Origin: Escherichia coli
GTDB taxonomy: Bacteria; Pseudomonadota; Gammaproteobacteria; Enterobacterales; Enterobacteriaceae
Length of the DNA stretch: 581 nucleotides
NCBI RefSeq assembly: GCF_003334385.1
Contig: NZ_QOWN01000163.1
Direction: 5' to 3' (one strand)
Shown here: in pieces, positions 1 to 581 of the stretch
Layout of the letters: each line of letters opens with the position of its first letter
Numbering within the stretch: the stretch's first letter is position 1
Notes under the pieces: generated by a model
Told to the model about the DNA's origin: nothing
What the model saw: the letters and a program-made list of their open reading frames with translations, nothing else
Databases searched by the model: none
Made by a program: the position numbers and the translations under genes

Positions 1-581
1 CTGACTGTTGTCAATCTCTGCCCACAGCGCCTCTGCCAGATGCGTTTTTCCTATCTTTTCCCGGAAAAGTTCCAGATAGCCCGCAGCATCATTGCTCGCC
101 CGTCCACTGGCTTCCACAAAAGCAGATTTACCCACCAGGTTGACGCTGCGCACATAAAACCAGAAATCCTTTCCGGGCTTAATGTGCGGACCGGAGACAC
201 TCCACTGACTGCCGGTCCCCAGATAACGGGCAGAGGTTTCCACCTGTGCGGCGTCTGCAATTTTTGCCTCCGAAAACCAGAACTCAAACTGCACCGTCGG
301 GTCATAAATGGTCAGTTTCGGGACTGCCGTTATCTGAAAATACCCCGGCGTCAGTTCAATGCTGGCCGGTGCCGCCGGTGCGTTAATCCGGAACGTGGTG
401 GTGGCGGGTTCGCCCTGCTGGCCATAGCTGTTAATCGCCCTGACCGTCAGGGTGTATTCCCCGGGAGGCAGGCCACTGAAACGGTGCTCCGTATCGGCAG
501 TGATGGCGGTGGTCAGCAGGCGGCTGTTCTCACCGCTTCCACTGGTCAGGCGCAGACTGAAGCGCACGCCCTTCACCACCC
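1..581 (-). CDS. J: Internal fragment (both ends outside the window) of a lambdoid phage/prophage tail-tip host-specificity protein, lambda gpJ-like (tip attachment / central tail fibre protein). Codons run on the minus strand from 579 to 1.
   Basis: Seen in sequence: the minus-strand frame 579..1 has 193 codons with no stop, and uses Leu CTG and GC-ending codons typical of enterobacterial genes. From memory of lambda gpJ: the translation shares stretches such as [21 protein letters not shown] and GRAS-DDA-GYL. Two FN3-type signatures are present ([22 protein letters not shown] and [22 protein letters not shown]). The track missed this frame, presumably because it has no start or stop inside the window. 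Confidence 0.85.
109..360 (-). other. Second, complete FN3-like domain module (residues about 74-157 of the window translation)
   Basis: Starts after the APAAPAS linker with [12 protein letters not shown]. It has a Trp-containing segment (FEFWFSE) and ends with the FN3-type signature [21 protein letters not shown]. Boundaries are approximate. Confidence 0.5.
382..581 (-). other. FN3-like domain module, N-terminal part truncated by the window edge (residues 1-66 of the window translation)
   Basis: Shows the FN3 F-G strand signature, with conserved Tyr, Val, Ala, Asn, Gly and Pro spaced as in [22 protein letters not shown], followed by TTTFRI. It is followed by an Ala/Pro-rich linker, APAAPAS. 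Boundaries are approximate. Confidence 0.5.

Follow-up and report, generated by a model that had tools for sequence, protein, structure and literature searches.

[quoted passage not shown]

Does a step in GC content inside a phage gene tell of a join between segments of different origin? The question was raised by a stretch of 581 nucleotides of Escherichia coli DNA, referred to here as the window. The initial annotation, made from the letters alone, placed a compositional step roughly at the linker between two FN3 modules and considered it compatible with a mosaic join, while allowing for noise or an effect of amino-acid composition. We identified the gene, measured the step in the window, in the whole gene and in homologues, and compared the two halves with their nearest relatives.

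Identity of the window

The window is a 581-nt internal piece of the gpJ gene of a lambdoid prophage on the minus strand, open at both ends. Six frames were checked and the sole frame open over the full length was this minus-strand frame. The remaining listed ORFs run out of frame or antisense inside gpJ and were not regarded as genes. One of them, an out-of-frame minus-strand ORF at 51-305, is entered by a frameshifted J protein of one genome (P0084), which after ...GPHIKPG follows that ORF and ends with ...NFSGKR; this J copy looks like a pseudogene.

A phmmer search of the PDB with the 193-aa product of the window yielded lambda gpJ (8iyk_J) with E = 4.3e-72, query residues 2-190 corresponding to residues 647-836. 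The window shares with lambda gpJ (PDB 8IYK, 8XCG and others) the succession of FNIII-1, linker, FNIII-2 and shaft start as well as a GC step at the matching place. It differs from lambda gpJ in sequence, the identity being about 61-62% for amino acids and about 65% for nucleotides, and belongs to the J group of Stx phages and E. coli prophages (96.7-99%). J genes of E. coli phages, Stx-converting ones among them, were 96.7-98.1% identical to the window at the nucleotide level. The best match in a complete genome was the annotated gpJ of E. coli SCU-104 (locus L001) with 99.0% identity; the gene has 3,531 nt and the window equals its nt 1931-2511. In the closest relatives J stands at the end of the tail-tip operon H-M-L-K-I-J, followed by lom/stf. 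Of 5,426 complete E. coli genomes, 2,020 had the gene; the number of places per genome was 2 in the median and reached 11.

Pfam analysis of the L001 protein showed FNIII-A (residues 86-207), Phage-tail_3 (331-492), Ig_J (609-712), Ig_J_second (714-816) and Phage_Tail_Tip (871-998). The tandem of Ig_J (PF24421, E = 1e-39) and Ig_J_second (PF24489, E = 2e-37) in this full-length relative, 99% identical to the window, recurred in the precomputed Pfam assignments of fragment homologues. According to cryo-EM, the domain order of lambda gpJ is HDs (hub domains), FNIII-1, FNIII-2, AHS (alpha-helical shaft), CSF (central straight fibre) and RBD (PMC11101478). The features of the window are compiled in Table 1. 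A scan for RNA families yielded none in the window (Rfam, both strands, E <= 1), and a search for repeats nothing beyond one 13-nt direct repeat in two copies at 156-168 and 273-285 (AAAACCAGAAATC / AAAACCAGAACTC). The repeat arises because each of the two stretches is the reverse complement of codons for an xFWF motif of FNIII-2 (KDFWFY and FEFWFS). A 172-aa gpJ fragment 99% identical to the window (P0009, from a 519-nt contig, 201 member sequences) bears the source name 'homoserine acetyltransferase, partial', which is evidently a mis-annotation.

Table 1. Features of the window; positions are those of the 581-nt stretch
Feature	Position	Strand	Basis and remarks
gpJ internal fragment (tip attachment / host specificity protein J)	1..581	-	residues ~645-837 of a 1176-aa relative
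FNIII-1, C-terminal two thirds (Ig_J, PF24421)	376..581	-	GC-rich part, ~65% GC, GC3 ~0.78-0.80; Pfam on relative, names from PMC11101478
Inter-domain linker APAAPAS, Ala/Pro with GC-rich codons	361..381	-	translation and Pfam domain ends
FNIII-2 (Ig_J_second, PF24489)	64..372	-	lower-GC part, ~53-55% GC, GC3 ~0.57; Pfam, per-domain composition
Alpha-helical shaft start, first 21 residues	1..63	-	alignment to lambda gpJ residues ~816-836; domain order from PMC11101478
GC change-point, best split after 342	338..371	.	change-point scan; equals gene nt ~2169
Crossover interval, 37 nt identical in both parental types	323..359	-	last B-like site 322, first A-like site 360
14-nt patch, A-type version in the window	360..373	-	all 6 differences from the best full-length matches

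Composition of the window, the gene and its homologues

The GC content of the window was 57.8% overall, 53.1% for positions 1-360 and 65.6% for 361-581, exactly as counted in the initial annotation, and the coincidence with the linker described there was borne out by the ends of the Ig_J and Ig_J_second domains. Since the gene lies on the minus strand, GC falls from 66% to 53% in the reading direction. By codon position the difference amounted to +1.4 points (position 1), +14.7 points (position 2) and +20.6 points (position 3). A free change-point scan of the window put the best split after plus-strand position 342, with all splits from 338 to 371 nearly equal (z = 3.04). With the boundary fixed at 360 the step had P = 0.003 in a shuffle test. 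With a free boundary P was 0.045 upon shuffling of bases and 0.08 upon shuffling of codons, and for a change-point in GC1+2 alone it was 0.66. Thus the earlier warning that such a step could be noise was apt for 581 nt taken alone, and these values would suit a chance fluctuation in a short window.

In the full-length gene of L001 a 221|360-nt difference as large as that of the window was reached at only 3% of the offsets, which speaks against chance. Drops of at least 10 points occurred in L001 at two places only, at gene nt ~2113-2175, i.e. the step of the window, and at ~2930-3130. The best single change-point within nt 1-3000 of J was nt 2169 in L001, 2169 in L003 and 2172 in L007. In lambda J it was nt 2175, both for the whole gene and for the first 2,900 nt; the change-points of all four alleles correspond to window position ~342. 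At a resolution of 150 nt the GC content of J was ~0.55-0.66 over the first 2.1 kb, then at most 0.58, and ~0.45-0.50 in the last 500 nt. On this scale other parts of J also swing by 8-10 points, as a fluctuating gene would.

Divided at the change-point, J of nt 1-2169 had a GC content of 0.608 (GC3 0.74), nt 2170-2970 one of 0.551 (GC3 0.64) and the 3' end one of 0.453. FNIII-1 is the GC maximum of J (0.641, GC3 0.79), while FNIII-2 had 0.547 (GC3 0.57). The tail genes H-I beside J ranged from 0.56 to 0.59. In some prophages a moron, sodC (Cu/Zn superoxide dismutase), is located between I and J on the opposite strand (L007 1185-1712, L096 405-932); in place of sodC, the I-J gap of L001 (5822-6070) holds an AT-rich spacer of 249 nt with a GC content of 43%.

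Conservation of the step was examined in 80 related loci from viral contigs together with the E. coli and lambda loci. The step was present in 88/88 homologous 581-nt segments (73 distinct), lambda included, although these are kin and do not represent 88 independent tests. The high part had 60.6-65.8% GC and the low part 51.4-56.1%, with differences of 4.5-14.4 points. In lambda J, at ~65% nucleotide identity to the window, the values were 65.8 vs 51.4% and the step 14.4-14.8 points. We then included five distant J-like genes (ES18, the rV5-like FV3, PMBT28, CAjan and Pseudomonas phage psageK9) with 30-37% amino-acid identity and gene GC contents of 45-60%. Each of these genes had a higher GC content in the FNIII-1 part than in the FNIII-2 part, by 3.6-10.3 points, with no difference in GC3. 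On the other hand, lambda, Stx2-1717, Stx2_EH1846 and L001 displayed a step of 10.8-15.6 points accompanied by a GC3 drop of 0.10-0.20 (from ~0.75-0.79 to 0.54-0.61). Among the nine genes compared, the GC3 component was confined to the lambda-like clade, a limit that is backed by only the five distant homologues. The same position and sign of the step in lambda J and in distant phage families make a chance fluctuation highly improbable.

The FNIII-1/FNIII-2 pair was encountered at 30-37% amino-acid identity in tail proteins of otherwise unrelated phages, namely rV5-like myophages, Seuratvirus, and Salmonella and Pseudomonas siphophages (phage records H131-H149, e.g. L089 ES18, L090 FV3, L092 CAjan and L093 psageK9). 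The pair appears to travel as a unit.

The share of the protein in the step was determined by recoding the amino-acid sequence of the window with the synonymous codon preferences of the whole J gene. The observed in-frame GC was 65.3 vs 53.1%, and 62.0 vs 55.6% was expected from the amino acids, so amino-acid composition accounts for 6.4 of 12.2 points. The amino-acid effect considered in the initial annotation hence explains about half of the step, and the remainder appears to be synonymous. The upstream part (end of FNIII-1 plus linker) is richer in Thr, Arg, Pro and Gly, the downstream part (FNIII-2) in Lys, Trp, Asp, Phe and Glu. GC3 was 0.78 vs 0.575 observed and 0.68 vs 0.66 expected (Fisher P = 0.005); at four-fold sites GC was 84 vs 71%, a difference that was not significant (P = 0.16). 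A tandem duplication giving rise to both FN3 domains was discarded as an explanation of the pattern: BLASTP gave no alignment between FNIII-1 and FNIII-2 even at E <= 100, and because they are not detectably alike a recent duplication has no role.

The step is probably composed of two layers. A protein layer results from the amino-acid usage of the FNIII-1 end and the Ala/Pro linker as against that of FNIII-2, and holds even in the J-like proteins of unrelated phages. A synonymous layer consists of the GC3 drop of ~0.10-0.20. As this drop is common to the lambda-like J genes examined, it was presumably inherited from before their divergence.

A join of two allelic types at the linker

The two halves of the window were searched separately. 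For the GC-rich half, a gpJ with 100% identity turned up in only four genomes of E. coli. The lower-GC half reached 100% identity in many other genomes, and 71 records had at least 99%. Accordingly, we distinguished a type A, comprising the loci L003-L006, and a type B, comprising L007 and 70 other E. coli records. Compared with type A the window had 0/259 mismatches in 323-581 and 40-42/322 in 1-322. Compared with type B (L007) it had 0/359 mismatches in 1-359 and 18-19/222 in 360-581. In a triplet test 42 consecutive B-like informative sites were followed by 19 A-like ones with zero exceptions (P ~7e-16, exact combinatorial). The nearest relatives of the halves do differ, as a mosaic would have them, with type A for 323-581 and type B for 1-359, and identity to one homologue was not uniform over both.

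The interval of the switch, 323-359, codes for a conserved ten-residue motif at the start of FNIII-2 and is near-invariant across alleles including lambda. This conserved stretch of 37 nt is a natural spot for a homologous crossover to resolve. Just beyond it the window mismatched L001, L097 and L007 at 360, 361, 363, 367, 370 and 373, and had zero mismatches there with L003-L006. L001 and L097 differ from the window by just these six changes, all in the 14-nt patch. Both genes are themselves A-like and bear type-B sequence at nt 2139-2509 (2049-2570 at the widest), a segment that roughly matches the FNIII-2 domain. The junction of L001 and L097 thus differs from that of the window, which means that there are at least two slightly different left junctions near the linker.

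Is the step a product of this join? The crossover interval overlaps the range of the GC change-point, and the upstream half of type A is the most GC-rich version seen, with 65.6% as compared to 62.4% in B. Both facts would suit a step made by joining donors of different base composition, and the mosaic reading of the initial annotation was right in so far as a join is present at the step (switch 322/360). Yet, the parental types proved to have the step unaided: type A had 65.6/53.3% GC and type B 62.4/53.3%, i.e. steps of 12.3 and 9.1 points, and lambda J likewise has its own. An island of foreign GC should be missing from the unrecombined parents, and it was found in A, B and lambda alike. 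In addition, the position of the step was the same in four diverged alleles. Because A, B and lambda each carry the step, it is older than the crossover and not caused by the join, so the differing origins of the halves do not account for it. The join adds at most ~3 points to the upstream half relative to a pure B allele. We concluded that the crossover coincides with the GC step rather than causing it, and we give the formation of the step from compositionally different donors hardly any credence. Instead, the crossover would have joined two alleles each already bearing the step.

Whether the junction itself is natural is a separate matter. The full-length window had no 100% match in the 5,426 complete E. 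coli genomes or in phage records. A junction-spanning 90-mer had no exact match in viral contigs, species-representative genomes or JGI metagenome contigs, and an exact-protein look-up returned no identical protein for the 193-aa product, a word-indexed search giving mostly short partial J fragments. Recurrence of the exact junction in independent sequence was not observed in these searches. Since the junction was found nowhere else, an assembly chimera has to be considered; this would touch the junction alone, the GC step itself being seen in every allele.

Such a chimera would have formed where the J copies of two co-resident prophages have the 37-nt stretch in common. The window indeed equals a base-for-base join of two gpJ copies from different prophages of one genome, E. 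coli SW070917 (NZ_CM129862.1): copy 1 (L004, gene nt 1931-2189) gives window 323-581 and copy 2 (L097, nt 2190-2511) gives window 1-322. An L001/B-like copy also resides in 3 of the 4 genomes with the A-type half. Yet, an exchange between co-resident prophages in nature yields the identical sequence. J occurs in several copies (median 2, at most 11 per genome) and draft assemblies very often split it into contigs of 440-1000 nt. The start of the window directly follows a polymorphic site at gene nt 1930, in favour of a chimera, but the other end is not directly beside a known variant. Furthermore, L001 and L097 are real genomes with a near-identical mosaic, their junction being merely 14-50 nt off, so such recombinants do exist. 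On balance we consider an assembly chimera a real but lesser possibility for the A/B junction.

Genealogical blocks of J and their bearing on the step

The linker was further characterised in 65 distinct full-length J alleles by correlating the pairwise-distance matrices of adjacent 200-nt windows. The correlation was ~0.95 over nt 1-1000, 0.0-0.6 between nt 1050 and 2650, and 0.84-0.91 past nt 2700, with local minima at nt 1100-1300, 1800-1900, 2100 and 2550-2600. The signal of the FNIII-1 core had r = 0.54-0.84 over nt 1851-2100 and 0.14-0.28 past nt 2150. For the FNIII-2 core the signal was 0.13-0.19 upstream, climbed over nt 2101-2200, stayed at 0.55-0.76 until nt 2550 and then fell to 0.13. 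With the two signals changing over at nt 2100-2200, the linker marks a boundary between blocks. In a tract-endpoint histogram, on the other hand, the endpoints of long identical tracts were not enriched at nt 2100-2200 but spread evenly along the gene, which leaves a crossover hotspot at the linker unsupported.

With a diversity of 0.209, compared to 0.08-0.10 in the flanking domains, the linker (gene nt 2137-2160) is the most polymorphic short patch in its part of the gene. Its alleles include APAAPAS, APAAPAG, APAVPAT, APAKPAT, APVAPAT and APAAPDS, among others. Elsewhere in the 65 alleles, internal linkage was tight, with block correlations of 0.82 in the hub (nt 1-1400) and 0.86 in the fibre/RBD region (nt 2611-3531). 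Hub and fibre (CSF block) were only weakly correlated with each other (r = 0.38), and the intervening 1.2 kb are heavily reshuffled.

The blocks bear on one more explanation of the step. A lambda-like ancestor may have taken FNIII-2, or everything from FNIII-2 on, from a lineage of lower GC3, and all present alleles would have inherited the junction. This would agree with the GC3 drop in the lambda-like genes and its absence from the five distant homologues, but the trough spans only ~100 codons, with a sampling error of GC3 of ~0.045. According to allele and span, the GC content is 0.59-0.61 before nt 2169-2175 and 0.51-0.55 thereafter; yet GC3 returns to 0.73-0.76 at nt 2476-2625 and 2776-3000, so a uniform block of low GC3 does not follow the linker. 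FNIII-2 does act as a genealogical block of its own, and the FNIII pair in unrelated phage types demonstrates that such domains move, although no donor lineage was identified. We regard an ancient join of this kind as conceivable and rather doubtful.

Taken together, we favor reading the step as a compositional boundary, conserved in lambdoid J genes, that separates the coding segments of FNIII-1 and FNIII-2 and with which the crossover in the window coincides, and we consider this quite likely. The linker probably bounds at the same time blocks that are semi-independent in recombination, the A/B crossover of the window having been resolved in the conserved 37-nt stretch there. More tentatively, FNIII-2 together with the shaft start (nt ~2150-2550) could be a discrete exchangeable cassette, shuffled apart from FNIII-1 and from the C-terminal specificity module. 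Its lower GC3 might then be left over from a separate origin in the ancestor of lambda-like phages, a proposal that we put forward with clear reservation.

Mosaic tail-fibre genes and promiscuous Ig-like/FN3 domains have reportedly been described for tailed phages. Exchange boundaries in the tail genes of these phages tend toward domain boundaries, and in classic tail-gene mosaics the joined segments are unrelated or very divergent. The exchange in the window is different from these mosaics in that it is homologous, joins alleles 8-13% apart and leaves the composition unchanged.

The gene and its behaviour are already known, J being a common and well-annotated prophage gene with documented intragenic recombination. 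The specificity region of J (lambda residues 960-1132) has been described as a module that evolves independently (Maddamsetti et al. 2018, PMC6646904). As in that study, where intragenic recombination gives parts of J differing genealogies, the same type of signal was obtained here. In contrast to it, the boundary in the window, which separates FNIII-1 from FNIII-2, lies ~240 residues upstream, in the portion of J that the study left aside as structural.

For the reading of mosaic genes it follows that a GC step coinciding with a genuine crossover need not stem from the crossover; the parental alleles settle the question. In short contigs of multi-copy prophage genes, junctions may in turn be indistinguishable from assembly chimeras. 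For the J family, the block structure of hub, FNIII-1, FNIII-2 with shaft start, and fibre/RBD is a small refinement of the known modularity. It could guide the choice of junctions in the engineering of J chimeras, the conserved stretch of 10 residues being a crossover site in natural alleles.
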